This document shows, piece after piece, positions 21,505 to 60,494 of a stretch of DNA of 64,000 nucleotides. How positions within the stretch are numbered: position 1 is the stretch's first letter; each line of letters begins with the position of its first letter. The position numbers were made by a program, and so were the translations under genes. Under the pieces are notes generated by a model, which was not told where the DNA came from, did no database searches, and saw nothing but the letters and a program-made list of their open reading frames with translations. Source of the stretch: a virus; IMG/VR virus record IMGVR_UViG_3300045988_144476. One strand, written 5' to 3'.

Positions 21505-22320
21505 ATGTATATTGATACCTATGATACTAATAACGAAGATGAAAGATTTAAAAAATATGTAGAAATTCTTAAATCCCATGATCAGCTAAAAAAATCATTA
21601 TGGAATAAGCTTAATACTCCAGAAGTGTTAAAATTAGAAGAAGAATCAGATACTCTTTTTAAAGAATATATGAAACTAGATAGAAAACTTCAAAGAGAGG
21701 TTGCGTTTTATAATAGTTATTTGAAATCTGATTCTGATTGTATAGATTATTGCGATGTAAAATTTCATGAAGATCTAGATTTTAATCTTCCTGAAGAAAT
21801 TCAAGAGTTGGCTAATACATTTCATAAGAAAGATAAAGAATATAGTTGTGCTTGTAATGCCCACAAAGAAGCATTATGTAAAAATTTTGTAAAGCTAATA
21901 TCAGATATTACTCCTGAAAATTGTTTTAGAGATAATTCATTTGGAAGTACTCGTGATGTCTTCTCAGATTTTTATAATTCATGCAAACCATTCATGATCC
22001 TTAACATGGGGTTATACGAGCTTATTATAGTTCAAGATATTTTTACAGATAAGTATCATCATACAAATTATTCTATTACTATGTATGAATTGAAAAACAT
22101 GTCAAACTTTGATGTAAAAGTAAGATGTGAAAAGTTCTTCGATCAATTTAATAAAGAATTAGAACCATATCGACAAAACTTACGTTCTAACTTCGAACAT
22201 AAAACTCCTGTTCTGACACCTTTTAAAGATGCATATACTCTTTTTGCTCAGACCAGATCAGAAGAATATGGCAGAACTAGACAATATCTGATTATTGGAT
22301 GTGTGGTGTATCAAAAATAG
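21505..22320 (+). CDS. hypothetical protein (271 aa)
   Basis: ATG with GGGGAGA RBS. No recognisable motif. Confidence 0.7.
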   Translation: MYIDTYDTNNEDERFKKYVEILKSHDQLKKSLWNKLNTPEVLKLEEESDTLFKEYMKLDRKLQREVAFYNSYLKSDSDCIDYCDVKFHEDLDFNLPEEIQELANTFHKKDKEYSCACNAHKEALCKNFVKLISDITPENCFRDNSFGSTRDVFSDFYNSCKPFMILNMGLYELIIVQDIFTDKYHHTNYSITMYELKNMSNFDVKVRCEKFFDQFNKELEPYRQNLRSNFEHKTPVLTPFKDAYTLFAQTRSEEYGRTRQYLIIGCVVYQK

Positions 22321-41448: not shown

Positions 41449-41477
41449 AGCTCCTCCTTTCTTTGAATATAAAAATA

Positions 41478-41497
41478 CTCCTCAAATAAAAGAGGAG
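41478..41497 (-). terminator. terminator-like hairpin directly upstream of the scaffold RBS
   Basis: CTCCTC-TTTTATTT-GAGGAG followed by TATTTTTATATTC on the minus strand. Confidence 0.5.
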
Positions 41498-41500
41498 CAG

Positions 41501-41680
41501 CTAAATACATAATGTATTTGTATAGACAAGATCACTTAAATTATTAAAAAGCATCTTACCATCATTTAAAAAAGTCCACTGTGTTCCAGACTGATTTACT
41601 AATTTAAATCCTGTCTTTAGTAATAAATCAGCAGACTCGTCATTATTTGTTATAATAAATTTTGCTTCATTATTTATCAT
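41501..41680 (-). CDS. small hypothetical protein (59 aa, below the ORF-track cut-off)
   Basis: ATG at 41680 preceded by AGGTGAGAAC. It fills the portal-scaffold gap. Manual translation begins MINNEAKFIITNNDESADLL... Confidence 0.5.
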   Translation of the reverse strand: MINNEAKFIITNNDESADLLLKTGFKLVNQSGTQWTFLNDGKMLFNNLSDLVYTNTLCI

Positions 41681-41688
41681 GTTCTCAC

Positions 41689-43272: not shown

Positions 43273-43292
43273 AAATTCGACACCTCCTTTAT

Positions 43293-45350
43293 TTAATCAT
43301 CAAATATCGATCCAATACGTCCTCTACGAATAGTAAGAGACTGGACTAATGAAATATCAGCTTTAGGCCGTTTTTTATTTGTAATAAATTTTCTACGTTC
43401 ACATTGAAGTGCATAAGATACCATGCAACAAGTGTAGGCACGATCATCGTGTAATTTATTACGTTTTTCTGGACATAATTCAAAAGAATCTTTACCAGAT
43501 TCTCTTTTAATACGAACCATATTGACAAGTTCTTCTTTTAAAGCGTCTATACTAGCAAGTGCTTTTTGTTCTTGCCAGTTTAATTTCTCAGTTCTACTTT
43601 TTACATTTTGTAGATTATTTAAATCATTCTGAACATTATAATCAATATCTTCAGGACTCATTTTTTGTTTTTTATATTTTGCTTCAAGTTCCCTTTTGGC
43701 TTTTTCATATTTTTCTTTATCAATATCAAAAATAGTAAGATAGTCCTTGCCATCATAATCAGCAGTAAAATTAATCTTATCCTGATTCATAAGTTCAATC
43801 ATAGCTTCGTACATCTCAGATTTATATTGAGTAGGAGACATAAGATGTATTTTATTAACAGCATTAGGAAATTTTTTAACATATTCCTCAGAATATTCTT
43901 TATCAATTAAACCACGATGCATTTTGCCATCTTTACCTTTCCAATCTGGCATAAGATAATCAGCAATATTAACACCGCCTCCACCAGATCCAGCATCGAT
44001 ATATATACCTAAAATATTACTATAGGTATCATCACCGCCTTGATTATAATCAAGAATAATTTCTTTCAAATAATCAATCTGATCGGGAGTTTGCATTGGG
44101 CTTTTTCTTTTGTTTCCTATATCAATAAGATTAATACAATTTAATAATCGCATTTTGTATTCAGTGTCACCATTTTGATCTTTATCAACATATATTTCTG
44201 CAACTAAAATTACAGAGTTATCTCTACTACGAGCAGGATCATACGCAATAACAATCTTACGCTCACTTGTATCATTACACAAAATAGGTTTTCGTACTTC
44301 AGAATTTCGTGCAATAACACCTCTTCGGATAATAGCATTAGCTCCAGCATCAGAAGTAAATTCACAATAATACTCTCTACGAGCCTTTTCAGGATTAGAA
44401 CGCATAGCTGCTTCAACAGTTGATTTTGTAAGAAGTGGAGCCATAACTTGACCACGAATAGTAGGTTTAAAAGCTACTTCACAATCTATATGAGCAACAA
44501 AATAATCAGGATCACCCATAAGTTGTCTTTTGCTAAAATCTCTATATAATTTATAAAATTCTGTATCAGTAGAAGACGCAGAAGATATATAAAATAATTG
44601 GTTCGGAATATTTGATGGAATACATCTTAGACGATTTATATCAATAGAATTGCCATCACGGTCTTTACCAGATTTAAAGCTTTTATTGACGATTGCAAAT
44701 GCACCATAAGTTTGAAGCATTTCATCAGAAAGCCATCCACATTCATCAAAAATTACATTACCACGCATTCCCCTTTTTTTATCTATATTACTATTGAGCG
44801 TCTGAGTAAATGCGCCATTATATAAGCTATATGAGAATCCGTTAGAAGAGTGACTAAAACCATCTCCAGCGGCATTTTTTATTTCTATCTCTGCTTTAAA
44901 TATATATCCGGTAGAACCAAGCATTGTATCAATGTTATCATTCGCAATTCTTTCAAGTGTTGTAAAGGTTTGTTCAGCCTGGCTGCCTGAACCAGAAGCA
45001 ATATAGGTCCAATAGTTATTAAACAACATATCTTTAGCCATAACCATAATATCTATTAATGTAGACTTTCCAAATCCTCTCGTACAAACAAGAAGAACAT
45101 TAGGACAATTCCAAGATCTTTGAATTATCCATGCTTGTGAATCCAATAATTCAATATTAAAAAAGTCATTTATAAATCTTACTGGATTACACTGATAATA
45201 TTTCTGAAGATTTGCGATTTTTATAAAACCTTCCAATTTTCTGGAGGACATTGGATAAATACCAGGTTTAACAAAAATTTTATCTCCTTGTTCACAATAA
45301 TTAAGATTCGGCAGATGATTCATTTTCTTCGGATTGATCATCTTCTTCAT
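43293..45350 (-). CDS. terL: terminase large subunit
   Basis: Walker A-like CTRGFGKST, Walker B-like VIFDECGW and a C-terminal nuclease-like half. The likely true start is the ATG at 45341, 9 nt after GAAGAGG. Confidence 0.9.
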   Translation of the reverse strand: MKKMINPKKMNHLPNLNYCEQGDKIFVKPGIYPMSSRKLEGFIKIANLQKYYQCNPVRFINDFFNIELLDSQAWIIQRSWNCPNVLLVCTRGFGKSTLIDIMVMAKDMLFNNYWTYIASGSGSQAEQTFTTLERIANDNIDTMLGSTGYIFKAEIEIKNAAGDGFSHSSNGFSYSLYNGAFTQTLNSNIDKKRGMRGNVIFDECGWLSDEMLQTYGAFAIVNKSFKSGKDRDGNSIDINRLRCIPSNIPNQLFYISSASSTDTEFYKLYRDFSKRQLMGDPDYFVAHIDCEVAFKPTIRGQVMAPLLTKSTVEAAMRSNPEKARREYYCEFTSDAGANAIIRRGVIARNSEVRKPILCNDTSERKIVIAYDPARSRDNSVILVAEIYVDKDQNGDTEYKMRLLNCINLIDIGNKRKSPMQTPDQIDYLKEIILDYNQGGDDTYSNILGIYIDAGSGGGGVNIADYLMPDWKGKDGKMHRGLIDKEYSEEYVKKFPNAVNKIHLMSPTQYKSEMYEAMIELMNQDKINFTADYDGKDYLTIFDIDKEKYEKAKRELEAKYKKQKMSPEDIDYNVQNDLNNLQNVKSRTEKLNWQEQKALASIDALKEELVNMVRIKRESGKDSFELCPEKRNKLHDDRAYTCCMVSYALQCERRKFITNKKRPKADISLVQSLTIRRGRIGSIFDD

Positions 45351-46608
45351 CCTCTTCTATAGAACTAAAACATGAATATAATTCATTTAGATCAACCAGA
45401 TCCTCCGGTTTGATTAATCCTTCTTCTTCCATATAATCCTTAAGATCTATATTTTCACGTAGTAAAATACGAGAAATTTCTTTATAATTATCTAAATCAC
45501 TTCGTAAGTTAGTAATCATCTGTCTTTGTTCAGCAACCATATCAGACCATTCAGATTCATCTAATCGCAATGCCTTTAATATAGAAGTATTACTCATATC
45601 CATAACTTGTTGCATACCTCTACAGGTAGCTAAATCAAATCCATTAACCTCTCCTTCACGAAGATTCATATCTTTGATCTTTTTAATTTTTCCGGTCCAA
45701 GTATTTTCGCCTTTTTTAGCATTTTTATTATTTTTCAGAGAAATACAACTTTCAGCAGCGAGATCTTTAATAATACTTGTTAAATCTTTTTTACTTTGTT
45801 GAAGGGATTTAATTGTTGCAGAATTATTTTGCAACTTACGAATATCAGACATGTATGTAGAAATAGCATTATCTATTTTAGATTGTTGTAGAAATGCTCT
45901 TACAATAGAAATAGCAGAAGCGGTTCTCATCATATCATCATTAGCATCTTCACTAGAATCAAGAAGTCCTAGCAATTGAGAATATAAGAAAGGCTGGTCA
46001 GATATAGCTTCTTTTTCGAATGGATCATATCCAAGTAATCTGACTACATCATTTTTATTTTTTACAAAACTACTATAAGTGTCTTGATCTTCACGACCTT
46101 TAATTACGTCTTCAGTAGTCTTCTCATCTTCATATATGATTTTTTCTTTAAACATATCTGAATCAGCATATGTTTCACCAATATATTGCGGCATAGAAAC
46201 ATTTTTAATATAAGATGTCCATGCATTATTCTTAGTTTTTCCAGTAGCGGAATTTTCCGATTCCTGAATACTTGAATCATATAATTTATTATAAAAAGGT
46301 TTATTTAAATAGCGTAAAGCTAACTGAATAGATTCTTTAGTGGGTTCATGTTCTTCTCCATTTGCATCAATTCTTAAAGCAATTTTCTTAGCGCAATCTT
46401 TACAAATTGGAGAACAATGAGATGTTACCAATGGATCGGTATTATCATAGAATCTATCTTTCCTTTTTGGTTTACCGCACATAAAACACCATGCGGTATT
46501 TTCTTTATAGTTTTCAATTTCAGTTTCTAATTCAGCAATTTTTTTTCTCATCTGAGTTGGAGTCATTTTGACAGGCTCAGACGTAGTACTTTTTCTTGTT
46601 GTTGCCAT
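45301..46608 (-). CDS. hypothetical Cys-rich protein (435 aa), small-terminase candidate by position only
   Basis: RBS AAGGAGGAG. CFMCG..CSPICKDC cluster. Its 3' end overlaps terL. Confidence 0.35.
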   Translation of the reverse strand: MATTRKSTTSEPVKMTPTQMRKKIAELETEIENYKENTAWCFMCGKPKRKDRFYDNTDPLVTSHCSPICKDCAKKIALRIDANGEEHEPTKESIQLALRYLNKPFYNKLYDSSIQESENSATGKTKNNAWTSYIKNVSMPQYIGETYADSDMFKEKIIYEDEKTTEDVIKGREDQDTYSSFVKNKNDVVRLLGYDPFEKEAISDQPFLYSQLLGLLDSSEDANDDMMRTASAISIVRAFLQQSKIDNAISTYMSDIRKLQNNSATIKSLQQSKKDLTSIIKDLAAESCISLKNNKNAKKGENTWTGKIKKIKDMNLREGEVNGFDLATCRGMQQVMDMSNTSILKALRLDESEWSDMVAEQRQMITNLRSDLDNYKEISRILLRENIDLKDYMEEEGLIKPEDLVDLNELYSCFSSIEEDEEDDQSEENESSAES

Positions 46609-46634
46609 AACAACTCCTCCTTGTGTTCGTTAAA

Positions 46635-46709
46635 TAGATGTAGTAGGACTCGAACCTACAAAACTCTGATCCTAAGTCAGATGCGTCTGCCAAATTGCGC
46701 CATACATCC
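46635..46709 (-). tRNA. tRNA-Leu(TAG)-like: tRNA with anticodon UAG (Leu CUA/CUG decoder by anticodon) but a class-I short variable loop
   Basis: Acceptor GGATGTA/TACATCT, A73, anticodon arm TCTGA-CTTAGGA-TCAGA, 5-nt variable loop, T arm GTAGG-TTCGAGT-CCTAC. No encoded CCA. Confidence 0.75.
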
Positions 46710-46715
46710 AAAGAA

Positions 46716-46733
46716 GGGCAGTAAAGACTGCCC
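46716..46733 (-). terminator. terminator-like hairpin between the phosphoesterase gene and the tRNA
   Basis: GGGCAG-TCTTTA-CTGCCC followed by TTCTTTGG on the minus strand. Confidence 0.55.
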
Positions 46734-46777
46734 TGTATAGAAGTGTATAATATAAGCAGCAACGCCACTCGTATTAT

Positions 46778-47959
46778 TTAATGTAATTTATATTTATGTT
46801 CATCTACAAGTCCATCTAACTGGTCAAACACAAACATAGAAGCACCTGCGTTTGCAGTTTTATTGATAGACATACTATATGGATTCACTCCAATAATTGA
46901 TCGAACACTAATTACTTCAGAATTTCGTGCAACTTCTTCAGAAAAAGAAGAATGCCAGTGTCCTGTAAATAAATAGTCGATAGGCACTTCATGGATCTTC
47001 ATAATATCTTTCATTGTCTTATTCAGATCTTTTGTTTCAAAATGTCCACCTAAACATGTATAAATAGTTAACTGTGAATATGCTAATCCAGTAGGATTTT
47101 CAACAATTTTTACATTTGGATTATCTTTTAATCTGGCTTTCATCAAAGCTAACATAGATTTACTCATATCTTCATTATCAAAAGCATTTTTAGGTTGTCC
47201 TAATAATCGCAATTGATTATGATTTGATTTTTTAACCATTTGAAAAGTAATAAAAACATGTTTACTTAATTCATTCAGCCATTCAGATAAAAAGTTTGCA
47301 TATAAAATAGAAGAATCAATAACTCCATATTTTAACTGCATAAGCTGAGAATTAGCTCTTAATAAACCATCAAGAGCATCTCCTAAATCCCAAATATGTA
47401 AATGTGTAATTCCGTCTTTATTGATCTGATCAACAACTTTATAATATAATTCCCACATTCTATGTTCAAAAATTTCAGGACTATATTCATTAATGGTATA
47501 TCCATGAAGATCTTTTATATTAAATTCAACTCCGTAATGAGCATCAGAAATAGTAAGAAGATAAGCTTTTGTAGTTGGTTTTAAAATGATCGGTTCAGGC
47601 TTCTCTAATGGTTCAAGACATTTTACAGCTTCGCCAATTTTTTCAGCAATTAATTCATCTCGTGAATACTCACGTAACCATTTATTAAACTCAAGTTTTT
47701 CAGTTTGAAGTTTAATTCGTTCTTTTTTAATTGCAAGTTCTTCCGGTATATTAGAAATAGAAGAGGATGGAGTAATATTCCATCCTGCATCTATATACTC
47801 TAATAATAATTTTGATCCTTTTCGAATTGTATCACGATGTTCAATTTCTCCTAAAGCATCAGATCTAAAATCTGTTACATCTTGCCATTCGATAGATGAA
47901 TCAGTTTGCTTTCGTTTAATCAGATCAAGCTGTTCTTTTAAAAATTGATCTTTATCCAT
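46778..47959 (-). CDS. calcineurin-like metallophosphoesterase (393 aa)
   Basis: Motifs ISDAHYG, DLGDALDG and GHWHS in the canonical order. Confidence 0.65.
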   Translation of the reverse strand: MDKDQFLKEQLDLIKRKQTDSSIEWQDVTDFRSDALGEIEHRDTIRKGSKLLLEYIDAGWNITPSSSISNIPEELAIKKERIKLQTEKLEFNKWLREYSRDELIAEKIGEAVKCLEPLEKPEPIILKPTTKAYLLTISDAHYGVEFNIKDLHGYTINEYSPEIFEHRMWELYYKVVDQINKDGITHLHIWDLGDALDGLLRANSQLMQLKYGVIDSSILYANFLSEWLNELSKHVFITFQMVKKSNHNQLRLLGQPKNAFDNEDMSKSMLALMKARLKDNPNVKIVENPTGLAYSQLTIYTCLGGHFETKDLNKTMKDIMKIHEVPIDYLFTGHWHSSFSEEVARNSEVISVRSIIGVNPYSMSINKTANAGASMFVFDQLDGLVDEHKYKLH

Positions 47960-48890: not shown

Positions 48891-50336
48891 TTATAATGTA
48901 ATAACCATATCCTTTACAGAAGCAACAACTTTAAATGTTTTATCTTCATTAGATATAGCTGTTTTTAAATCTTGTTTTAAACTATTTTTAGCAACTTCTG
49001 AACCGTGAACTAAAACTAATTTTTCAGTATTTACTTTAGATCCATATGTGATAAGTTCATTTCTGTTAGCATGACTTGAAAATGTTCCAAGAGATATACA
49101 ATCCGCTTTATTTTCAACTCCATCACCACTAATTTTTATTATCTTATTTTCCTTATAGTTTTTAATTCTATATGAAAGATAGGAATTATCAGCTCCGGTA
49201 TATCCGCTAAAAATAACCATACTGTTTTCATCATTTAAGTATTCATGCAAATAAGATAAAATACGTCCATTTGTACAAAAACCTGAACTGCTTAAAACAA
49301 TTTTAGGTCTATGATCTTTAACAATAGCTAAAGAGTCTTCTTTTTCACGAATAAAATGAACTTTATCCCAACTAGATATTTTTCCCCATAACTCCAAATC
49401 ATTATCTGGTAGAAGAGTAGAATATAGATCACAAATATCACATGATAAGATAGAATCAACAATAATGTCATATTGAAAATTCTGATCATGATAAATACTA
49501 TATAGATTTGTCAATATTTCTTGCGTTCTACTAAAACTAAAGCATGGCATAATAACGGATCCACCACGTTCAGTTACTGTGTCAATAGCAGCTTTCAAAT
49601 GATCCAGGTCAAATTTACGTGTTTTCTTATTAATTCGTCCTGGTTCACCATAAGTAGACTCCATAATAGTAATTTTATTAAAATCTGTTGGAATTTCAGT
49701 ATTAGGAACATAATGATTCTTTGTATTCAAAGAACCAATATCAGAAGTGTATAAAATAGATTTTGGGATTCCGTTTTGATCCCGAAGTGTAAGTTGGAGC
49801 TGCCTAGCACCAACGCAATGACTATTTTCATACCATTTAAACGAAACGACATCATCCAAAACATATTGCGTATGAATTTCATCATATTCAACAATATATT
49901 TCAAGGTATCAGTAACATCTGTTTCATCATAGATAGGAGAATAGTTTCTTTTATATTTAAATGATAAAGCATTTGCTTCACTGAGTAAAATAAAAGCACA
50001 ATTATAAAGCAGCGGTTTCATAAGTTGTGCAGTAGCATGTGAAGCAATAATTTTTCCTGTAAATCCTTCTTTTACCAGTCTTGGAAGTAATCCAATATGA
50101 TCAACATGAGTATGTCCAATAAAAACATAATCAATTTCAGAAGGTTTAAATTGAAATTTTGCTGAATTTATATTATATGACTCAAGATAATTATTATTTT
50201 GATATAAACCGCATTCTAATAATATTTTTTTGCCGTTGTATTTAATATAAATACAGCTGCCGGTAACATCATTGGCATTTTGACCTATTAAATAAATGCC
50301 TTCATCTTTTTTCTTTTTAGCTATGTCAAACACCAA
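48891..50336 (-). CDS. metallo-beta-lactamase / beta-CASP family nuclease (RNase J / CPSF-like)
   Basis: HxHxDH motif (IGHTHVDHIG), ESTYG, and the C-terminal SSHAN motif. TTG/GTG start with a weak RBS. Confidence 0.8.
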   Translation of the reverse strand: MVFDIAKKKKDEGIYLIGQNANDVTGSCIYIKYNGKKILLECGLYQNNNYLESYNINSAKFQFKPSEIDYVFIGHTHVDHIGLLPRLVKEGFTGKIIASHATAQLMKPLLYNCAFILLSEANALSFKYKRNYSPIYDETDVTDTLKYIVEYDEIHTQYVLDDVVSFKWYENSHCVGARQLQLTLRDQNGIPKSILYTSDIGSLNTKNHYVPNTEIPTDFNKITIMESTYGEPGRINKKTRKFDLDHLKAAIDTVTERGGSVIMPCFSFSRTQEILTNLYSIYHDQNFQYDIIVDSILSCDICDLYSTLLPDNDLELWGKISSWDKVHFIREKEDSLAIVKDHRPKIVLSSSGFCTNGRILSYLHEYLNDENSMVIFSGYTGADNSYLSYRIKNYKENKIIKISGDGVENKADCISLGTFSSHANRNELITYGSKVNTEKLVLVHGSEVAKNSLKQDLKTAISNEDKTFKVVASVKDMVITL

Positions 50337-50748: not shown

Positions 50749-50830
50749 TGGGAGAGGTAGGACTCGAACCTACGATGTTTCTTTGTGGCTGATTTACAGT
50801 CAGCTGCCTTCGCCGCTAGACTACTCTCCC
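50749..50830 (-). tRNA. tRNA-Tyr(GTA): tRNA-Tyr (GTA)
   Basis: Acceptor GGGAGAG/CTCTCCC, anticodon arm GCTGA-CTGTAAA-TCAGC, long variable arm, T arm GTAGG-TTCGAGT-CCTAC. Confidence 0.85.
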
Positions 50831-51147
50831 TTGTGTTAAGTGAACAGCTATTCTTATTAAATATATAACCATAAATGGAGGCCATATATTTTATTGGAAA
50901 CTTAACTTTCCCATATGATTTATGGTTAAATCACAAAAACTTGACTGCGTTTCGTCCTAAGTCAAACTCCCGCCAGATTTTCACGCTACTAGATATCTGG
51001 AACTTATCTTTTAATTCATCAAGAATACAGATTTGCGCCTGTCATTCTAAGATATAGTCTGTGTACTTTAGACTGCCATTTACTTCACTTCCTAAATGGT
51101 CAAAACGTAATCTGGGGCTAGAGGAGCTACCTCCGCATTTCAGATAA

Positions 51148-51219
51148 CACGCCCCCAAAGATTCGAACTCTGACTAATCGGGTTGGAGCCGATTGTACTG
51201 CCAATTATACGAAAGGCGT
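51148..51219 (-). tRNA. tRNA-Trp(CCA): tRNA-Trp (CCA)
   Basis: Acceptor ACGCCTT/GGGGCGT, D arm GTAT/GTAC, anticodon arm ATCGG-CTCCAAC-CCGAT, T arm CAGAG-TTCGAAT-CTTTG. Confidence 0.85.
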
Positions 51220-51227
51220 AAATAAAA

Positions 51228-51300
51228 GGTGACTAACGGGATTCGAACCCGTATAAGGTGGATCCACAATCCACTGCATTACCAAATCTGCCATAGTCAC
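51228..51300 (-). tRNA. tRNA-His(GTG): tRNA-His (GTG) without a genome-encoded G-1
   Basis: Acceptor GTGACTA/TAGTCAC, discriminator C73, anticodon arm GTGGA-TTGTGGA-TCCAC, T arm ACGGG-TTCGAAT-CCCGT. The base at -1 (51301) is U. Confidence 0.85.
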
Positions 51301-51302
51301 AA

Positions 51303-51384
51303 CGCTGCACACACGATTCGAACGTGCAAATCCTTTCGGACCAACAGTTTTCAAGACTGCTTCTTCACCACCCAGACATGCAGC
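51303..51384 (-). tRNA. tRNA-Ser(TGA): tRNA-Ser (TGA)
   Basis: Acceptor GCTGCAT/GTGCAGC, anticodon arm GCAGT-CTTGAAA-ACTGT, long variable arm TCC-GAAA-GGA, T arm GCACG-TTCGAAT-CGTGT. Only 2 nt separate it from tRNA-His. Confidence 0.8.
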
Positions 51385-51447
51385 ATAAAAAATATCCGTC
51401 TTTCCGGATTGTCAGACTACCCAGTAGTCATTTGCTAATTAATAATA

Positions 51448-51485
51448 GAAGCTGCGTCCTGCAGTTTCTTTTTTTTGTTTTTATT
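51448..51485 (+). terminator. plus-strand rho-independent terminator inside the minus-strand tRNA array
   Basis: GAAGCTGC-GTCCT-GCAGTTTC (8 bp including one G-U pair) followed by TTTTTTTTGTTTTT on the plus strand. Confidence 0.5.
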
Positions 51486-51506
51486 AATAATTCCTATATG
51501 GGATAA

Positions 51507-51591
51507 CGCAAAGCAGAATACTCGAAATTCAATCCAATAAAGGATCGCATGACTTAGCAGGTCAGCTCCGTGCCTCACGGATTTACTTTGC
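51507..51591 (-). tRNA. tRNA-Ser(GCT): candidate tRNA-Ser (GCT), non-canonical
   Basis: Acceptor GCAAAGT/GCTTTGC, 3-bp D stem, anticodon arm TGAC-CTGCTAA-GTCA, variable arm ATCC-TTTATT-GGAT, weak T arm GAAT-TTCGAGT-ATTC. A8 in place of U8. Confidence 0.5.
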
Positions 51592-51684
51592 AAGAGGAGA
51601 GTGGGAGACAGAAGTCTCCCTCAAAAAAAAATGAAAACAATAGTAACATAAACAACATCAAATTTGAGAGAAAAATTCTCTCAA

Positions 51685-51770
51685 TACTACCTGTGGGACT
51701 TGAACCCACACTTCGTATTTCAGAAACAGGATTTTAAGTCCTGTGCGCCTGCCAATTACGCCAAGGTAGC
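51685..51770 (-). tRNA. tRNA-Leu(TAA): tRNA-Leu (TAA)
   Basis: Acceptor GCTACCT/AGGTAGT, anticodon arm CAGGA-CTTAAAA-TCCTG, long variable arm, T arm GTGGG-TTCAAGT-CCCAC. Confidence 0.85.
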
Positions 51771-51782
51771 ATTTATGGGATA

Positions 51783-51854
51783 AGCACTATATGAGAATTG
51801 AACTCATATCATCTGATTGGAAGTCAGATATCATTGCCATTAGACCAATAGTGC
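51783..51854 (-). tRNA. tRNA-Gly(TCC): tRNA-Gly (TCC)
   Basis: Acceptor GCACTAT/ATAGTGC, anticodon arm TCTGA-CTTCCAA-TCAGA, T arm ATGAG-TTCAATT-CTCAT. Confidence 0.85.
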
Positions 51855-51858
51855 AAAA

Positions 51859-51932
51859 TGCCCGGTGCGAGACTCGAACTCGCATTATTGCCTTGAAAGG
51901 GCAATGTCACTAGCCTGTTAGACCAACCGGAC
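51859..51932 (-). tRNA. tRNA-Glu(TTC): tRNA-Glu (TTC)
   Basis: Acceptor GTCCGGT/ACCGGGC, anticodon arm TTGCC-CTTTCAA-GGCAA, T arm GCGAG-TTCGAGT-CTCGC. Confidence 0.85.
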
Positions 51933-52090
51933 TTATTTTATCTAGGAAGCGGGAAGCGGTCTTCTGCCGAACTGTTTATCTTATTACCTACTAAATTATA
52001 AAGAGCCATGGTTTTATAAAATTTTGGATCTCAGTTTAAAGAACTAAGATAATATTCTTTACGATTAAATCGTACTTAATACTTCCCAAA

Positions 52091-52161
52091 TAGCGGAGAT
52101 TAGATTCGAACTAATGTCTCTAGGGTATGAACCTAGCAAGGATCCACTCCTCTACTCCGCA
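52091..52161 (-). tRNA. tRNA-Met(CAT): tRNA-Met (CAT) with initiator-like features
   Basis: Anticodon arm CTAGG-TTCATAC-CCTAG, T arm ATTAG-TTCGAAT-CTAAT. Positions 1:72 are a U-U mismatch and 11:24 is A-U. Confidence 0.8.
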
Positions 52162-52345
52162 TTAATCGTTTATATGGTAGAACTATATCTGTATCGTCTT
52201 ACAATACATAGCATGTTCACTTATTGCCTACTAAGGATTCCATACTTTATCCCGATCAAAGTATAAAATGGACTCGGTTAATAATTCACATCTCATTTAA
52301 TATACTTTGTGTATGTTTATCCACACCAAACTTTCAGGCACCAAA

Positions 52346-52419
52346 CTGGAATGATGCGATTTGAACGCACAACATCTTGGTCCCAAACCAAGCGGACTGC
52401 CAAATTGTCCTACATTCCA
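52346..52419 (-). tRNA. tRNA-Pro(TGG): tRNA-Pro (TGG)
   Basis: Acceptor TGGAATG/CATTCCA, D arm GGAC/GTCC, anticodon arm CTTGG-TTTGGGA-CCAAG, T arm GTGCG-TTCAAAT-CGCAT. Confidence 0.85.
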
Positions 52420-53221
52420 TTAATAATAGGATGAGATTATTGACCTATTTAAATCAGCTTTGCTTACCGTTGGAAGTAAGTAATCACACGAACGATTAAT
52501 TCGTAGCTGATAGCGACACCAGTTTCAGTGGCTACTGGCAAACTCTTACTACATAGTATTATAAATTTCCTTTCAGCACATTCTTCCTTGCGAGATTCAG
52601 AGATTGCAGTCTCTTAGAGTTGCACCTAATTGTACTTTTTCATATTTCACCTTGCGAGTTTAATATGTGTCCATATTACAGAACAATAAGTCGCTTTTCT
52701 CTATGTAGTCGCATACACTTTTGCTTAATATAAGAATTTAACATTATTTTATGTTTTCTAACCAATTAAAAATATGTATGCTATTATTTATAGACTACGA
52801 GGTATACGTTTGAACATCTGTATCTTTTGAATACAGCCCATTCATCGCAGCCTTGCTTGTCTTGCTATCGACTCACTTTAGGCTATTCTAACTATCTTTC
52901 GATTTAAGTCAGAAATGTCCAATTAAATACAGCACTTGCTCTTGCGGAACTTGCACCATAAAACAACCTTACTGTCCACCCATTTCTGAGTTTATTTATA
53001 GCACCTTTCCCATGATGCCCGACCAACCATTGTCCTCAGCGGATGCCCCAAGACTTTAGGTTGGAACGTTAGTAAGTATTGGCTTTCTATCACCCCTCTT
53101 TAGAAGGAGGCACTTTCGTGCTTTATACGTGTCACCACGCTTATTTAACGACTTGAAGCCAGCCGATCTAATATTTATATATTTTATAAAAAAAACATAA
53201 AGCTTATTAGATAAAGCTAAG
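52420..53221 (-). ncRNA. candidate large structured non-coding RNA (GOLLD/ROOL-like context)
   Basis: 800-nt spacer between tRNA-Pro and tRNA-Asn with no ORF and less AT bias than its flanks. Minus-strand GNRA-capped hairpins: GCAC-GAAA-GTGC (53110-53121) and CGTG-GTGA-CACG (53128-53139). Three-way junction CAGCT[ACGAA..TTCGT][CTTAC..GTAAG]AGCTG (52455-52509). CCAACC/GGTTGG stem. Internal repeat CTCGCAAGG at 52586 and 52650. Confidence 0.5.
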
Positions 53222-53294
53222 CTGACCCAGTAGGAATTGAACCTACGACACGCTGGTTAACAGCCAGCTGCTCTACCTATTGAGCTATGGGCCA
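53222..53294 (-). tRNA. tRNA-Asn(GTT): tRNA-Asn (GTT)
   Basis: Acceptor TGGCCCA/TGGGTCA, D arm GCTC/GAGC, anticodon arm GCTGG-CTGTTAA-CCAGC, T arm GTAGG-TTCAATT-CCTAC. Confidence 0.85.
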
Positions 53295-53330: not shown

Positions 53331-53603
53331 TTACGCATTAACTGCTTCTTTAATAGCTTTACCAAATTTGCATTTTACTGCATTCTTAGCATCAACCATT
53401 ACAGTTTCACCAGTTCTTGGATTACGAGCTGTACGAGCATCTTTATGTACAGAATACAGAGTTACTCCGTCCATCAGTTTAACTTCCTCACTAGCAAGTG
53501 TAGCAAATGTTACGTCCTGAACAGCTTCAATAACTGTCTTTACATCTTTCTGTGTGAATCCTGTTTTACCTGCAACTTCTTTAATCATTTCAACTTTGTT
53601 CAT
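53331..53603 (-). CDS. hup: HU/IHF-family DNA-binding protein
   Basis: 90 aa. MNKVEMIKEVA...GFTQKDV...RTARNPRTGETV...KCKFGKAIKEAVNA is a typical HU fold signature. Strong RBS AAAAAGGAGAAA. Confidence 0.9.
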   Translation of the reverse strand: MNKVEMIKEVAGKTGFTQKDVKTVIEAVQDVTFATLASEEVKLMDGVTLYSVHKDARTARNPRTGETVMVDAKNAVKCKFGKAIKEAVNA

Positions 53604-53697: not shown

Positions 53698-54036
53698 TTA
53701 GTTAAAAATATTATTGGCGATTTCTGCGCCTTTTTCATTAAGTATTTCACATGAATTGATATAAGATGTAATTACATTACCTTCTTTATCTTCACGCTTG
53801 ATTTCAATCCCTTTGCATTTTGGATTTTTGCATGCCATTACATTTCCATGAATAAATGTCATTGGCTGACCACATGCTCTACAAATGTGTTTAGATACAA
53901 ATTTTTCCTGTTGTTTTGCAAGTTTTTCTTCATCACTTGTTTTTTTAACAATTGGTTTCATTCCCCAGGCTTCTCTAAGATCAGCGAGAGAAGTATAATG
54001 TTCTTTTGTCCCGGAGGATAATCTATAATTTTTCAT
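53698..54036 (-). CDS. zinc-ribbon protein (112 aa)
   Basis: CRACG..CKNPKC. RBS AAGGAGA. Confidence 0.7.
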   Translation of the reverse strand: MKNYRLSSGTKEHYTSLADLREAWGMKPIVKKTSDEEKLAKQQEKFVSKHICRACGQPMTFIHGNVMACKNPKCKGIEIKREDKEGNVITSYINSCEILNEKGAEIANNIFN

Positions 54037-54309
54037 TTTGTAAATCTCCTTGTTTTCAAATAATTATTTGTACGTCCGGATGTATTAAGCCCATCCGGAG
54101 GCATTAAAAAACTATCAATTCGAATCCCATATTTAAATACGCATCGGTAATAGCGCAGAAGGTTTTGCCTTTTTTCAAACAGCTGTCTGACCACATGTAT
54201 CCAAATTCTACGTATAATATGGACCTGAAGGATCAACGAAGCAAAAAGTTATTCCCCTCATATAGTGGACGAATTTGACATTGCGAAAAGTACTGGTTTT
54301 ATATACGTT

Positions 54310-57174
54310 TTAAACCAACTTTTTTTTTGAATTCGTGTAATTTTTGCGGAAATTTTGAAGGAATGCATCTTTATCCATATTGTAAAGAAGATTAAGCAAG
54401 TTACGTGTATACCGAATGTATTCTTTAGCTTTACCTCGATTACTGGTATTTAAAGCAATTTCAATAAGTCTGCTCATTGTTTTTGGATTTTTTATTTTCA
54501 TTTTACGTAAATCTTTAAGAATTTCATCAAATCTTTGAGTATATGCTATAATATCGTCATCTGACATATTATCTTTACTCAATAACTCTAATTCTTTAGC
54601 ATATCCTATAATTTTATCCATTTGTCTTCGATTAGCATCGCCAGAAACTTTTATAATAAAATCTTTCGTAGGAGTAGAATTTTTAGAAGAGATAGGTTTA
54701 ATCTCATTTATTACAATCTGCAGAGCATTCATAGGACATATATAATAGGAAGAAATTCTGTTATTGAGCTTGTCAACCTGTTGCATAACTTCTTCTTTTT
54801 CAAGTTCTTTACCGTTCTTTGTATATGAAATTTTCCTTGTATATCTCATAAACTCTGGAAAATCAATTTTCTGTTTCTTGGTATTGCCATCTTCATCAAC
54901 ATATTCCCTATACCGATTCATGCATTCCATTCTTTTGATTCTCTTTATTTCATCAAGAGCGTCAACTTCATATTCTCTTTTGCAACCATCAATTATAACT
55001 TGGGCAAGAACAGAAAGAATAACGAAGTTATCGTATAATTCCCTTGTAGGTTCAGTCCAATAATATGTCATAGCAAGCTGTGCTAAATTACTAGATTCAC
55101 CAATACCAATTCTAGATTTTGCAAATTTATTATCCATACGAGCGTACTCTTTGAGTGTATTCTTATATGTAAGGCCGCTTTCTTTAAGCTTATTTACAAT
55201 AGTAGGATATTTTTGATATGCAATTTTTGCACTTTGTACCATTACATCATTATTAGTAACAAAAAAGAAATCTGAATCAAAATCACATCCATTAGCACGA
55301 TCCTGGATATCAGTATGGATACAATTTACAAACATGATATTGTTACTAATATTAAAATATCGCTTAAATCTATCATCATAGTGATTATGTAAGTAGCAAA
55401 TATTATTAGGACTATTATGAGGGTTTCTGATACCACACAAATATTCACCATCATCAAATCTTTTGGTATATACCTGAATTACGCCATCTTCATGTTTAAA
55501 AGTTGGATCGTCATCCGGATTTTCTCCTACAGCTTTCATTAAAAGAGCATAAGGATTTCCAAAAATAGTTAAGTTATCTCCATTTATAGTAATTTTACCG
55601 GTACGAAGTTTATTTACATATTGATTTATAATTTTTCTTTTTTCAAATCTAAACCATGTACTTTCTGCAAATTCATTGTTCCAATTATACAAATCTGCCA
55701 GCATTTCATAGTGATTCACTACATTTGCATTTTTTCTCAGATAATCAACATAAATACCATTGTCAACTTTCATAGATTCAACATAATCAACACTTTTTTT
55801 AGCTAATTTACGAATTTCATTTACATAGCAGCATGGAAGAATATCATCTTTATAAGAAGGAAGAGTATTAACCATTTGATAGCTCATCTGTTGCACATTA
55901 CCTAATTTACTTGGATGATCGGTTTTAACTATCCCCCAGTAGGATCCATCAGCATTAACTCTATCACACCAATATTTATAGGCATCTGCAGGTGTTTTAC
56001 CCATCAAATTCATGAATTTCTTCCATTTAATAGCATTATCTGTTGTAATCATCTTAATATCTTTCAATTTATGTAAAATACCAAACATATCCTTTACTTC
56101 ATATGTTTCGTAATCATACCCATGTTCAGCACACCAATCTTTTAAAAATAACTGTATTTCACATCGAATAGCACATGCTTTAAAGAAATGTTCTCTCAAA
56201 AGTGCCATTCCATTCACCCATGATGGAAGAATAGAAGACTCTGCAAGCATCTCACCATCAAATAAAGTATTTTTTACCTCAGTTTCCTCATCATGAACGA
56301 CACATTTTTTCTTAATTACCGGAATTGTTTTATATCTTCTGGTATATTTCGGAGTAACGCCATCTTTAAGAAATTTCTTTTCCTTAATAGCCTTTTGTCT
56401 AGCAGCTTCAGTAGCTTCTTCATCAAGAACACGTTCATAATCTGTATATTCTTCAGCTGAAACAATCTTAGCCATCGTTTTAAAAAAACTGTCATGATCC
56501 TTAAGAATTAAAATATCTTCAACAGGACAATGAAATTTCCCTACAATAGTAGAAGTAGTAAGCGGAGCATAAGCTGACATTTCAACAATTTTCGCATCGT
56601 CAATAGGCATTTTGTCTCCAAGTCCCATAGTGAGCCAATCATATGCCTTTTTGTATAATTTACTATTAATAAACATTACCTGGCCAATTTTAGCCTTTGA
56701 AGAATTTCGGTAAAGCATTTTATAATTAATTTTCTGTACCTTTTCTTCATTTTTCTTAGAGTATTTGGTCCGGTATGTAACATCTATACCATTTTCATAG
56801 AATAATTCTCTAATTTCATCTTTGGACATTTTTAGATAATTATCCTTATTAGCCTGTACATTTTCAAATATTTGTTTAATTCTTTCTTTTGATTCCTTTG
56901 TAAGAGAAGCATCTTCCTCATATCCTTTAAATTGTTTCCTTAAATGAGTAATTTCTTCTTCATAGCTGCGACTACCAAAATTAAAATCAAGACAGATAAT
57001 ATCTCTTGTACTTGTATCATTCCATATATTTAAACCATGTTCTTTTATCCAGTCTGAGAATAAACTGTTACTGAACATAGCATCAGTAAAATCAAATCTT
57101 TCACGAACACCCTGATTATTTCCAAAGAGAGTGCCGGCTTTTATATTTTTTATTTTTAATCCAAATTCTGACAA
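54310..57174 (-). CDS. YonO-like / RdRP-fold single-subunit two-barrel RNA polymerase (954 aa)
   Basis: Ordered motifs SAYAPLTTSTIVG, ILILKDHDSFF, LFDGEMLAESS, GIRNPHNSPNNI and the metal-binding-like NGCDFDSDFFFV (DxDxD). This is the pattern of eukaryotic-type RdRP and SPbeta YonO. TTG start 5 nt after GGAGGTG. Confidence 0.65.
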   Translation of the reverse strand: MSEFGLKIKNIKAGTLFGNNQGVRERFDFTDAMFSNSLFSDWIKEHGLNIWNDTSTRDIICLDFNFGSRSYEEEITHLRKQFKGYEEDASLTKESKERIKQIFENVQANKDNYLKMSKDEIRELFYENGIDVTYRTKYSKKNEEKVQKINYKMLYRNSSKAKIGQVMFINSKLYKKAYDWLTMGLGDKMPIDDAKIVEMSAYAPLTTSTIVGKFHCPVEDILILKDHDSFFKTMAKIVSAEEYTDYERVLDEEATEAARQKAIKEKKFLKDGVTPKYTRRYKTIPVIKKKCVVHDEETEVKNTLFDGEMLAESSILPSWVNGMALLREHFFKACAIRCEIQLFLKDWCAEHGYDYETYEVKDMFGILHKLKDIKMITTDNAIKWKKFMNLMGKTPADAYKYWCDRVNADGSYWGIVKTDHPSKLGNVQQMSYQMVNTLPSYKDDILPCCYVNEIRKLAKKSVDYVESMKVDNGIYVDYLRKNANVVNHYEMLADLYNWNNEFAESTWFRFEKRKIINQYVNKLRTGKITINGDNLTIFGNPYALLMKAVGENPDDDPTFKHEDGVIQVYTKRFDDGEYLCGIRNPHNSPNNICYLHNHYDDRFKRYFNISNNIMFVNCIHTDIQDRANGCDFDSDFFFVTNNDVMVQSAKIAYQKYPTIVNKLKESGLTYKNTLKEYARMDNKFAKSRIGIGESSNLAQLAMTYYWTEPTRELYDNFVILSVLAQVIIDGCKREYEVDALDEIKRIKRMECMNRYREYVDEDGNTKKQKIDFPEFMRYTRKISYTKNGKELEKEEVMQQVDKLNNRISSYYICPMNALQIVINEIKPISSKNSTPTKDFIIKVSGDANRRQMDKIIGYAKELELLSKDNMSDDDIIAYTQRFDEILKDLRKMKIKNPKTMSRLIEIALNTSNRGKAKEYIRYTRNLLNLLYNMDKDAFLQNFRKNYTNSKKKLV

Positions 57175-57186
57175 ACAAACACCTCC

Positions 57187-58920
57187 TTAAAATGGAATTA
57201 GCGTATTATTATATTCTCGTGTAGACATAACTATATTATTGTCAGAATTAGTTGATGAAATGCTTCTATTAATTGATGAAACACTGTGATGGAAACGTGA
57301 ACGTGTATATCTGCCATAATCTTCCATAAATTGTTTTAAAACCTTTTTATCTTTATTTTTAATTTTATCAGATTCGCATTTCTTTAACTGTTTCTGCAAA
57401 TTACTTAATTGTCTATTACTACTAAGTGTACCTAATGGTCCACCAATTTTCATTTTTATATCTTTCTTTTTACGTTCAATCTCTTTTTTAAGAAATTCAA
57501 TTTTCTTATCCAAATCTTCATTTATCATTTTTTCAAAAGCTTTATTATATCTATCGATGTAATATTGCTGAAGATCTTTGGAGAATGTCTTCATCAGATC
57601 ATTCCATGTCATTTTCTCAATTTCTTCTATATTAATAGATTTAGCAAAATCAATAATATCTTTCACGAACTCAAGAGTAAGTAAAAATGTCTCATATTTT
57701 AAAGTACTTTTGAACATTCTAAATTCAATGGTGTCTTTGTGCTGTAAGTTTAACGCAGCTTTTTTACCGGTATTATCATACTTTGCAAGCAGATTAAGAA
57801 CCGTATCTTCTTTACAACGATCACCCACAAATTGACTATAATCCGTATTTCTTCTTCCAATAACACAAATATTGTCGTTAAATTTCTCAATAATATACAA
57901 TATTTTAGAAATTACCAGATCCTGCTGCATTTTGGTTTTACCTAAATAATCTCTATTTGCATGAATATGTAAGCCTGCAGTATTACAATCATGTCCTTTA
58001 TAACCCATTTCATCAAGATATTTAAACATTTCTTTGTAGTTCATCTTGTTTTTATGATATTCTAAGCTACAAGGCATAGTATCAAGTTCAATTTGAACCG
58101 TACCATCATGAGTACTATATATAAGATCTTCTTTATCAGACTCAGATCCATTCATTATTTGAATACATCTCTTTACAACTGATTGTTTATTATTAGAATC
58201 TACTTCTGGTTTATTTCCACCAACTTCTATTTCTGCTCCAAGTAGAAGAGTAGTACGTTTATTTTCGTGGTCCATAAAATGTTTAATATATTCTGGCGTA
58301 TAATTATATTCATGAATATAGTATTTTTTATTACAATTATTTATCATAGCAGTTCGTAACATTGATGCACTGTAATCTATAAAAAAATCATTAGCATAAG
58401 AAGATGAAGCACTAACTGATTCTATTAGACGATCTAAGCCCCTATCATTTACAACATTCCCATTAGTATCTACTTTTCTATATCCGATTAATTCACATCT
58501 ATTACATTCTGCATTAAAATATACATTATCATTAGATAGACTATTTAATCTGTGTTGTGATACAAGTTTTCTAGATACTTCATACGTATCGGTATTTAGT
58601 CTGCTACAGAACCAATTATAAAATAAATTAAAATTATAAATAATTCGACAATCAAATCTATGCCAGCCAGAATCATCGCAATATGAAACAGTTGCGGTAT
58701 CTATATCTGTATAATTCGATAGTGCTATTCTTACTTTTTCAGCTAATTCACGCATATTAAATTCAATTGCATAATCATTACATTCAAAAATAATACAATC
58801 TCCAAAACTATTATTTGTATAAATACATCTTATATTTGTAACAAAATAATTATCTACAACAAATGGATCCTGAAGACTAATAGTATGTCCGTCAATCTCT
58901 ATATCAGGTAATAATTTCAT
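57187..58920 (-). CDS. amidoligase-like enzyme (glutamine-synthetase-like COOH-NH2 ligase, Amidoligase_2-like) with a basic coiled-coil C-terminus
   Basis: GAEIEVGG, HDGTVQIELDTMP, TAGLHIHAN and DTIEFRMFKSTL in the family order. Confidence 0.55.
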   Translation of the reverse strand: MKLLPDIEIDGHTISLQDPFVVDNYFVTNIRCIYTNNSFGDCIIFECNDYAIEFNMRELAEKVRIALSNYTDIDTATVSYCDDSGWHRFDCRIIYNFNLFYNWFCSRLNTDTYEVSRKLVSQHRLNSLSNDNVYFNAECNRCELIGYRKVDTNGNVVNDRGLDRLIESVSASSSYANDFFIDYSASMLRTAMINNCNKKYYIHEYNYTPEYIKHFMDHENKRTTLLLGAEIEVGGNKPEVDSNNKQSVVKRCIQIMNGSESDKEDLIYSTHDGTVQIELDTMPCSLEYHKNKMNYKEMFKYLDEMGYKGHDCNTAGLHIHANRDYLGKTKMQQDLVISKILYIIEKFNDNICVIGRRNTDYSQFVGDRCKEDTVLNLLAKYDNTGKKAALNLQHKDTIEFRMFKSTLKYETFLLTLEFVKDIIDFAKSINIEEIEKMTWNDLMKTFSKDLQQYYIDRYNKAFEKMINEDLDKKIEFLKKEIERKKKDIKMKIGGPLGTLSSNRQLSNLQKQLKKCESDKIKNKDKKVLKQFMEDYGRYTRSRFHHSVSSINRSISSTNSDNNIVMSTREYNNTLIPF

Positions 58921-59255: not shown

Positions 59256-59674
59256 TCCATTTCCTCCTTAATCGGTGTTCTTTTTTCGCTTACAGTTATA
59301 AATGTGCCTTTATTTAAATCAACTAAATATTCATATGAATAAATAACGCCTACTTCTTTATATTCATCAAATATTGTAAGTAAATTTACATTATCTTCAT
59401 GCTCCTGGAACACAGGATTATGTAATCTTAAATTATAAAATTTATAACACTTAAGATTAATAAAAATTGAAGTATAAGAGACATAAGAGTTGCATATATC
59501 TTCTACACCCGATTCATAAGTGATTCTTTTATTAAAATCGTAATTTTTCATTATATTAACAATTTTTAAAATACTATCCTGTGTATTCTTTAATTCTTTT
59601 TGTAATTTGTCTATTTTGTCATATAATTCTTCATATTCACTTTTCTTATTCCAAAACATATTATTCCCCCACAT
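59252..59674 (-). CDS. hypothetical protein (140 aa)
   Basis: Overlaps its neighbours within the operon. Confidence 0.65.
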   Translation of the reverse strand: MWGNNMFWNKKSEYEELYDKIDKLQKELKNTQDSILKIVNIMKNYDFNKRITYESGVEDICNSYVSYTSIFINLKCYKFYNLRLHNPVFQEHEDNVNLLTIFDEYKEVGVIYSYEYLVDLNKGTFITVSEKRTPIKEEME

Positions 59675-60494
59675 ATACTAATTTATTTATATATTCTCTA
59701 CCTTCATTCCGAAATACAGGAATTTGAACATCTATACGCCAATAATCACCACTATAATTCTTAACGCAACAAATTCCACGTTGTTTATGTGTTTCAAAAT
59801 CATTATCAAAATCAATATTTTTCTGCTTATGTAACATTTCTTTAATATCAGCAGTATTTTTATTCTGCAGTTCTTTCTGAGAAAAATTAGCCTGACCAAC
59901 CATCTGAATTGAATTACGAATACAATCCTGCTGTCTCCAGAAAAAATAATTAGTGACTTCATCTTTAGAGAGATTAAAACATCTGGAGTCAAAACCTTTA
60001 TACTTAACTTCAATTGCATTACTTAAATAATTAATATAAGTGAGATCTTCCTGATGCTGATTAATAAGCCATTGATTGGTACATCCCATATCCCAATTAG
60101 GAATATTTTTATAACCAAATTTCTCAATATTGTTCTCAAATACTTCTTTGAACCTAATAGTAGCTAGAGCAGCAGAGGTACTAACTATTTTCTGAATACG
60201 ATTATCAAACCAAGGTTGAGTATCAAAATCTTTATAATCAATAAGAAGTAATGAGATTTCATCAGACTGAGTATATGCAATAACACAATTCTGTACATTC
60301 TTACATAAATACAAAGCAGTCTGTTGCATAGAATTAATCAAAATATCATCAAATGGCCTCTTGAATCCTCTTGTAAAACTATGAAATCTGCGGCCATCAA
60401 GTCTAATGATTACCGGCATTCTCCGGATCAACTTCTGGTCCGTGACTTTTTCGTAGCTTTTCATTCTGATATCTAAATCTGTGTATACTGGCAT
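59661..60494 (-). CDS. Thg1-like protein (tRNA-His guanylyltransferase family, 3'-5' nucleotidyltransferase)
   Basis: IIRLDGRRFHSFTRGFKRPFDD...IAYTQSDEISLLL matches the Thg1 N-terminal catalytic motifs. RBS AAGGAGAG. Confidence 0.8.
   Translation of the reverse strand: MPVYTDLDIRMKSYEKVTDQKLIRRMPVIIRLDGRRFHSFTRGFKRPFDDILINSMQQTALYLCKNVQNCVIAYTQSDEISLLLIDYKDFDTQPWFDNRIQKIVSTSAALATIRFKEVFENNIEKFGYKNIPNWDMGCTNQWLINQHQEDLTYINYLSNAIEVKYKGFDSRCFNLSKDEVTNYFFWRQQDCIRNSIQMVGQANFSQKELQNKNTADIKEMLHKQKNIDFDNDFETHKQRGICCVKNYSGDYWRIDVQIPVFRNEGREYINKLVYVGE

Follow-up and report, generated by a model that had tools for sequence, protein, structure and literature searches.

The window analyzed here, a 64,000-nt stretch of DNA from the IMG/VR virus record IMGVR_UViG_3300045988_144476, encodes on its minus strand a 954-aa polymerase that is a new, divergent representative of an already described group of two-barrel RNA polymerases, the YonO-like branch, and not a new kind of enzyme. 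Very probably it is a single-chain polymerase of the YonO type whose gene may be transcribed by the host polymerase and which, acting as a processive DNA-dependent RNA polymerase (RNAP), transcribes the late genes of a phage or prophage of gut Lachnospiraceae, the layout of which distantly resembles that of SPbeta. The YonO-type family was already known; the finding is of value for the size of an unannotated clade, the Ser or Thr that this clade tolerates in the metal loop, and a conserved RNA that adjoins the polymerase gene.

Identification of a YonO-Like RNA Polymerase

An earlier reading of the DNA letters alone (henceforth the original prediction) had proposed a 954-aa open reading frame (ORF) at positions 54310–57174 and had left its strand unstated. 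The ORF is real and lies on the minus strand, translation of the plus strand in this interval being full of stops. A chance ORF is ruled out because the protein has thousands of matches, namely 3397 of the scored candidates from a database clustered at 90% identity (E ≤ 1e-3). Its N-terminus, MSEFGLKIKN, is identical in close homologs. The Shine-Dalgarno sequence of the polymerase gene shares nucleotides with the stop codon of the gene upstream, and the two genes are therefore probably cotranscribed. All four motifs that had been quoted were found in the claimed order, namely AYAPLTTST (residues 201–209), LFDGEMLAESS, GIRNPHNSPNNI, and NGCDFDSDFFFV (table 1).

Assignment to the YonO lineage, also part of the original prediction, is borne out by three profile comparisons, for which the YonO reference sequence was taken from AF020713 and a family alignment was assembled from the window protein and 110 diverse relatives (111 sequences); this alignment is the basis of both the hidden Markov model (HMM) of the family and the structural model described later. 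First, the window protein and YonO match the same family, PHROG 8308, with E 2.1e-89 (residues 77–948) and E 0, respectively. Second, the family HMM scores YonO with 83.7 bits in a collinear alignment over almost the whole length (profile 10–858, YonO 9–794). Third, HHalign matches the family alignment to YonO with a probability of 99.2% (E 2.4e-19, 497 columns) and pairs RNPH of the family with RSPH of YonO, DFDSD with DNDGD, FDG with TDG, and IGESSN with IGEYSN.

Among the representatives of clusters formed at 50% identity, 1161 match at E ≤ 1e-3 and 550 at E ≤ 1e-30. Nearly all matching proteins that have a source name are called "hypothetical," and because YonO and the window protein are covered by no model of Pfam or NCBIfam, the clade has stayed almost entirely unannotated. 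A tblastn search of 50,697 phage records matched only unannotated gut phages and Enterocloster phages, with SPbeta not among the matches, and Megablast of a 12-kb region gave no match. Relatives were found in one Ruminococcus sp. isolate genome and in metagenome-assembled genomes of Lachnospiraceae and Faecalimonas, on the basis of which we assign the host to gut Lachnospiraceae, and also on viral contigs, often of 130–180 kb. A related prophage is located in Ruminococcus sp. AM36-2AA (contig QTYB01000001.1, 378.7–401.6 kb). The source element is a large phage or prophage of these bacteria.

Predicted Fold and Active Site

We modeled the protein with AlphaFold2 from the 111-sequence alignment; the model has a predicted local distance difference test score of 94.1 and a predicted template modeling (TM) score of 0.91. 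In a Foldseek search against the PDB, the top 19 matches of this model are all RDR2 from maize and Arabidopsis or QDE-1 (E 1.6e-12 to 3.6e-8, probability 1.00), with TM scores of 0.41–0.47 over ~1000 columns, in line with the fold like that of RNA-dependent RNA polymerases (RdRPs) that had been proposed. The next matches are the RNA polymerases P74 gp62 and P32 gp64 of Thermus phages, and the 22 matches that reach E ≤ 1e-3 in the PDB consist entirely of two-barrel polymerases from these sets (RDR2, QDE-1, and the Thermus phage RNAPs), none of them named as a crAss-like polymerase. In BFVD, a gut-phage protein with the name "RNA dependent RNA polymerase" ranks first (E 3.5e-49, TM 0.71), and weaker matches include a Thermus virus P23-45 protein and A7KVB1, which is nameless in the tables used and which we take to be a protein of Bacillus phage 0305phi8-36. 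CrAss-like polymerases in BFVD give marginal matches with E from 0.019 to 0.93 and TM from 0.14 to 0.20, the best being cr111_1 (E 0.019). Of the structures that the original prediction had named for comparison, QDE-1 is thus among the top matches and the crAss-like polymerase shows weak similarity; the searches did not assign a different fold.

Ruprich-Robert and Thuriaux (PMC2919709) list eight residues that are invariant in all two-barrel polymerases and that correspond in QDE-1 to D709, R738, K743, R962, P964, D1007, D1009, and D1011. Their counterparts in the window protein are D306, R327, K332, R583, P585, D631, D633, and D635, and all eight are invariant columns across the 111 sequences. 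Order and spacing of these residues agree with those in QDE-1, the correspondence being taken from motif order and from the HHalign alignment to YonO. As judged from sequence and predicted structure together, the polymerase is a member of the single-chain two-barrel (double-psi beta-barrel) superfamily with a complete set of catalytic residues.

Proposed Role in Late-Gene Transcription

YonO, as experiments show, is a DNA-dependent RNAP of high processivity that transcribes the late genes of SPbeta as a single operon, and its Asp triad is essential (Forrest et al. 2017, PMC5467207); processive DNA-dependent synthesis that depends on this triad has been shown for YonO alone (PMC5467207). The gene order around the window polymerase follows that of SPbeta: a tblastn search of the window ORFs against SPbeta revealed homologs of yonN (HU), yonJ (E 6e-41), yonG, yonF, and yonD, which lie downstream of the polymerase gene in the same order and on the same strand. 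The polymerase gene heads a nearly uninterrupted same-strand block of ~48 kb that includes HU, a tRNA array, RNA-processing genes, terminase, portal, and tape measure. Because the polymerase is homologous to YonO in position as well as in sequence and because the genes follow the order seen in SPbeta, it most likely functions in transcribing late genes, by analogy with YonO. In the scheme that we propose, the host polymerase may transcribe the polymerase gene, which stands in a tightly packed same-strand series with sigma-70-like consensus matches upstream; the protein would then act as a processive DNA-dependent RNAP and would transcribe the late genes that lie downstream, perhaps starting at one promoter just past its own gene.

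Rifampicin insensitivity had been put forward as an established property of such enzymes. We do not uphold it as such, as the word "rifampicin" is absent from the main text of the YonO paper (PMC5467207). It is a plausible property of the window polymerase because no counterpart of the rifampicin pocket of the beta subunit is evident either in the window protein or in YonO.

Several results weigh against a YonO-type, DNA-dependent polymerase. Identity to YonO in the HHalign alignment is 19%, and pairwise BLASTP of the window protein against SPbeta YonO is not significant. For the polymerase, Pfam contains no relevant match at E ≤ 1, including its RdRP model, an NCBIfam search returned nothing, and a sequence search of the PDB gave no polymerase match at E ≤ 10. 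The metal loop bears Ser and not Gly, no repeated promoter-like motif for the polymerase was found in the window, and the nearest solved structures are those of RNA-dependent enzymes.

The last of these points bears on the alternative that survives best, which we nevertheless regard as improbable, namely that the enzyme is an RdRP that copies or amplifies phage or host RNAs instead of transcribing DNA. The best structural matches in the PDB (RDR2 and QDE-1) are all RNA-dependent, both BFVD and the record of Enterocloster phage PMBT24 name relatives "RNA dependent RNA polymerase," and the neighborhood includes genes of RNA metabolism (a Thg1-like gene, a beta-CASP RNase, and the tRNA array). 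However, the only characterized member of the phage branch is YonO, described as a processive DNA-dependent RNAP specific to the SPbeta late genes (PMC5467207), the window gene occupies the yonO position before a syntenic late block, and the database names appear to have been carried over from similarity of fold or family and not from experiments.

We give even less credence to a polymerase packaged in the virion, injected along with the DNA, and active in transcribing early genes, in the manner of crAss-like gp66, N4 vRNAP, or the tape-measure-fused polymerase of P23-45. According to a preprint, other phage two-barrel polymerases are virion proteins (bioRxiv 10.1101/2022.12.01.518664), and the window gene is near the structural module; yet HU, tRNAs, and nucleases stand between the polymerase and the structural genes, and the model resembles crAss-like polymerases only marginally (E 0.02 or worse). 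The translation signals that overlap the upstream gene and the sigma-70-like matches upstream are compatible with expression after infection, and yonO, the positional counterpart, acts on late genes. A YonO-type polymerase of late genes remains our preferred reading, and a third alternative is taken up with the metal loop, on which it depends.

The Metal Loop

Cellular RNAPs carry NADFDGD in the metal loop, and YonO likewise has Gly at the position at which the window protein has Ser (S634) in place of the canonical glycine of DxDGD. The original prediction correctly placed this Ser between the second and third Asp, but the replacement is not peculiar to the window protein: among 125 clade representatives with the motif, Ser is found in 105, Thr in 9, Gly in 6, Ala in 2, Leu in 2, and Val in 1, so that 114 of the 125 have Ser or Thr, and the clade consensus is N-[GS]-x-D-x-D-S-D. 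In QDE-1, the metal loop reads DYDGD, and its glycine is not listed among the eight residues that are invariant in the superfamily (PMC2919709). For this reason, we treat DFDSD as a variant of the clade and not as a ground for excluding the protein from the YonO-like group. Ser in place of Gly is the usual state of the clade and presumably compatible with catalysis. That the protein became a catalytically altered or non-polymerase derivative through the loss of a glycine that YonO, QDE-1, and cellular RNAPs keep is the least probable alternative and very hard to reconcile with the strict retention of the three Asp and the five other invariant residues in 111 diverse sequences, with the position of the Gly outside those eight, with a dominance of Ser/Thr that points to purifying selection on a working site, and with a homing-endonuclease-bearing insertion that hits exactly the DxDSD codons in two relatives.

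In these two relatives (loci L056 and L057), the polymerase gene is split inside the DxDSD codons, with ..NGMD before and xDSDFMLV.. after the insert. The split region is at L056 ~11900–12590; the insert measures ~850 nt, carries a 178-aa HNH endonuclease ORF (L056 11833–12369), and matches the group I intron model RF00028 weakly (28.3 bits, E 6e-5, below the gathering threshold). Homing-endonuclease elements typically target conserved, essential sites.

A Conserved Structured RNA Next to the Polymerase Gene

By comparing the DNA that lies 3' of the polymerase stop codon among relatives, we identified a structured RNA element that begins 43 nt past this codon in the window; GGUAUAUGAGGG marks the far end of the 43-nt gap. 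The element is at least as conserved as coding sequence, and RNAalifold predicts a multihelix structure for it. With a covariance model based on ten sequences, each locus proved to have exactly one copy, always located 40–90 nt past the stop codon of the polymerase and on the strand of that gene. This holds down to a relative with 62% polymerase identity (E 3e-25), and a shortened 84-nt form is present in relatives at 56% identity (E about 5e-7). A relative at 57% has a weak candidate ~200 nt past the stop (E 0.2–0.8), and another hit in the same locus scores alike; in relatives at 49–54% identity, the unfiltered covariance model gave no credible hit. Over 19 distinct sequences, 98.4% of the cells are paired, and compensatory changes that affect both sides are seen in 15 of the 34 pairs, compared with 8.3 ± 1.5 in shuffles (none of 500 reached 15) and 1–3 when partners were slid. 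Frequent G–U pairs agree with the polymerase strand. At gathering thresholds, Rfam detects only tRNAs in the window, and a search of 53980–54330 gave no Rfam match at E ≤ 10. The two most conserved blocks of the element occur once each in the 64-kb window.

Past the RNA element lies a hairpin (table 1); in the window, no clear U-tract comes after it. In the 43-nt gap (54267–54309, minus strand), directly past the polymerase stop codon and ~30 nt 5' of the element, we observed a TATAAAA-like box; it is kept in relatives down to 62% identity and is a candidate for a promoter element, one that lacks a −35 partner. The gene past the RNA element differs among relatives (a zinc-ribbon ORF, HU, or an RNase), whereas the polymerase gene before it is constant, and we therefore associate the element with the polymerase or with the point at which the late unit begins, rather than with any one gene downstream. 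We speculate that it is a leader of the late transcript or a promoter region. A more specific proposal, that element and hairpin together are a dedicated partner of the YonO-like polymerase, either as the promoter-proximal leader of a single late transcription unit (for instance a recruitment or antitermination RNA that acts in cis) or as a regulator of the enzyme, is a tentative one that we think more apt to fail than to hold. If it were true, comparative genomics of the gut-phage clade could reveal how YonO-type enzymes choose their start sites, a question left open in 2017.

Promoter Signals and Comparison with the SPbeta Start Site

According to the original prediction, the genome offers candidate promoter signals for the polymerase. 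No repeated motif of this kind was found in the window, in which all direct-repeat families are weak matches within coding regions and sigma-70-like sites are not commoner than in shuffled sequence (109 vs. 103); the single-copy RNA element is the only conserved noncoding signal near the gene.

The start site of YonO in SPbeta is upstream of "an unannotated non-coding RNA" (PMC5467207). The published forward primer for primer extension maps to 20550–20573 of the SPbeta sequence (L001), and the published reverse primer was not found by a search allowing up to 3 mismatches; its site, read from the SPbeta sequence, apparently has one extra T and is at about 20330–20355. Between the two primer sites lies the single SPbeta occurrence of the motif TATGAGGG..CTTCAGG..ACATGT, which in IMG/VR adjoins YonO-like genes in 52 of 52 cases. 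We considered homology between the RNA element and this start-site region and rejected it: the motif pattern had been picked after both sequences had been viewed, neither the covariance model nor nhmmer finds the element in SPbeta, Goe11, SPbetaL1, and phi3T do not conserve the blocks CTTCAGG and ACATGT, and SPbetaL4 and SPbetaL2 lack the whole segment.

A separate observation concerns the SPbeta-like Bacillus phages themselves, which have a long, almost invariant noncoding stretch between yonN and yonK (L001 ~19150–20300, minus strand; likewise in L118–L122). Most records examined have no annotated feature in this stretch, which is presumably the "unannotated non-coding RNA" of the YonO paper.

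Gene Neighborhood

Almost everything from ~62.8 kb down to 5.8 kb is encoded on the minus strand (table 1). Upstream of the polymerase gene are an anti-repressor-like gene, the Thg1-like gene, and the amidoligase-like gene; downstream of it follow, in this order, a four-cysteine ORF, HU, ten tRNAs, the beta-CASP RNase, a ClpP-type protease, the exonuclease, the large terminase, the portal, and further structural genes. The RNA-related genes around the polymerase (Thg1-like, amidoligase-like, and beta-CASP/RMMBL) are a possible module for tRNA repair or processing. As a conserved partner of the polymerase, the four-cysteine, zinc-ribbon-like ORF is ruled out by its absence from relatives below ~70% polymerase identity. 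Within the region of the tRNA array, a segment of ~800 nt (52420–53220) has no tRNA and no convincing ORF. The minus-strand block is broken at 20437–22320 by an island of two plus-strand ORFs (195 aa and 271 aa) that coincides with a local reversal of GC skew. In Thermus phage P23-45, the tape measure carries an N-terminal two-barrel RNA polymerase.

Table 1. Features of the window discussed in the text, in the direction of minus-strand transcription
Feature	Position	Strand	Remarks
Thg1-like 3'-5' nucleotidyltransferase	59661-60494	minus	tRNA-His gene in nearby array
Amidoligase-like protein, 577 aa	57187-58920	minus	PHROG 16683
Shine-Dalgarno AAGGAGG	57182-57188	minus	strong ribosome-binding site, 7 nt 5' of TTG start
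YonO-like single-subunit two-barrel RNA polymerase ORF, 954 aa	54310-57174	minus	TTG at 57174, stop codon 54310-54312
LFDGEMLAESS	56233-56265	minus	residues 304-314; invariant D306-G307, counterpart of QDE-1 D709 and Rpb2 D837; first (beta-like) barrel
LLREHFFKACAI	56167-56202	minus	invariant R327 and K332, the QDE-1 R738/K743 basic pair; 5-residue spacing common to both
GIRNPHNSPNNI	55399-55434	minus	residues 581-592; invariant R583-x-P585, equivalent to QDE-1 R962/P964 and Rpb1 R446/P448; aligned with YonO RSPH
NGCDFDSDFFFV	55258-55293	minus	residues 628-639; invariant metal-binding triad D631/D633/D635, and S634; aligned with YonO DNDGD
Conserved structured RNA, ~150 nt	54119-54266	minus	six helices, 34 pairs, single-copy, no Rfam match
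Hairpin CCGGAUG/CAUCCGG	54076-54098	minus	past the RNA element; pairing kept although stem sequence varies between relatives; loop partly conserved
Four-cysteine (zinc-ribbon-like) ORF, 112 aa	53698-54036	minus	first gene past the RNA element; no family match; close relatives only
HU-type DNA-binding protein	53331-53603	minus	SPbeta YonN homolog; yonN comes after yonO in SPbeta
Ten tRNA genes (Tyr, Trp, His, Ser, Leu, Gly, Glu, Met, Pro, Asn)	50749-53294	minus	downstream of polymerase
Beta-CASP/RMMBL ribonuclease	48891-50336	minus	
YonJ-like exonuclease	46778-47959	minus	start of late/structural block (39877-47959)
Lone tRNA-Leu	46634-46710	minus	
YonG-like	45301-46608	minus	
Large terminase/YonF-like	43293-45350	minus	
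Portal	41689-43272	minus	
YonD-like	39877-41448	minus	
Tape-measure protein, 1929 aa	23986-29775	minus	family matches confined to residues ~1280-1910; ~1280 N-terminal residues unexplained
2658-aa ORF	12407-20383	minus	no PHROG or Pfam match

Comparison with Known Polymerases

To our knowledge, YonO is the only characterized bacterial-virus representative of a lineage that includes the eukaryotic polymerases of RNA silencing. The present analysis adds a large and diverse YonO-related clade in phages and prophages of human-gut Lachnospiraceae, with more than 1100 clusters at 50% identity, nearly all unannotated. In this clade, as in SPbeta, the polymerase gene precedes a late block; the clade also tolerates Ser/Thr in the metal loop and bears one sharply conserved noncoding RNA by the gene. 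It offers material for annotating such genes, for examining the role of the glycine, and for the search for a promoter or leader of these enzymes, and the conserved RNA could help to find how YonO-type polymerases start transcription.

YonO of SPbeta from Bacillus subtilis resembles the window protein in being a single chain with two barrels that belongs to PHROG 8308, in the ordered motifs sAY..L, xDG, R....K, YQM, RxPH, DxDxD, IGExSN, and ID..K, and in the position of its gene before HU and a collinear late block in a large genome of temperate siphovirus type. It differs in length (839 aa vs. 954 aa), at ~19% identity, in having a Cys-rich C-terminal tail that is absent from the window protein, in its metal loop (DNDGD vs. 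DFDSD), and in host (Bacillus vs. gut Lachnospiraceae); in addition, the covarying RNA element found 3' of the window gene has no detectable counterpart in SPbeta. QDE-1 (2J7N/5FSW) and RDR2 (7W82/7ROZ), which match best among solved structures, have in common with the window protein the eight active-site residues at similar spacing, with a basic pair spaced as R..5..K and RxP about 45–48 residues before DxDxD. In contrast to the window protein, they have DxDGD and use RNA templates in RNA silencing, and identity is 8–11%.

Two further groups are more distant. The non-virion RNAPs of the Thermus phage P23-45/P74-26 family (P74 gp62 and P32 gp64; 8F5M, 8F72) are, like the window protein, phage-encoded, single-chain, two-barrel enzymes (Foldseek E 2e-5 to 1e-4); however, they are of ~590 aa, cover the model partially with a TM of 0.26 relative to the query, and have no detected sequence similarity to it. 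The crAss-like virion RNAP of the phi14:2 gp66 type belongs to the same superfamily and has the DxDxD signature (PMC7824862), but it is a giant, multidomain protein packaged in the virion.

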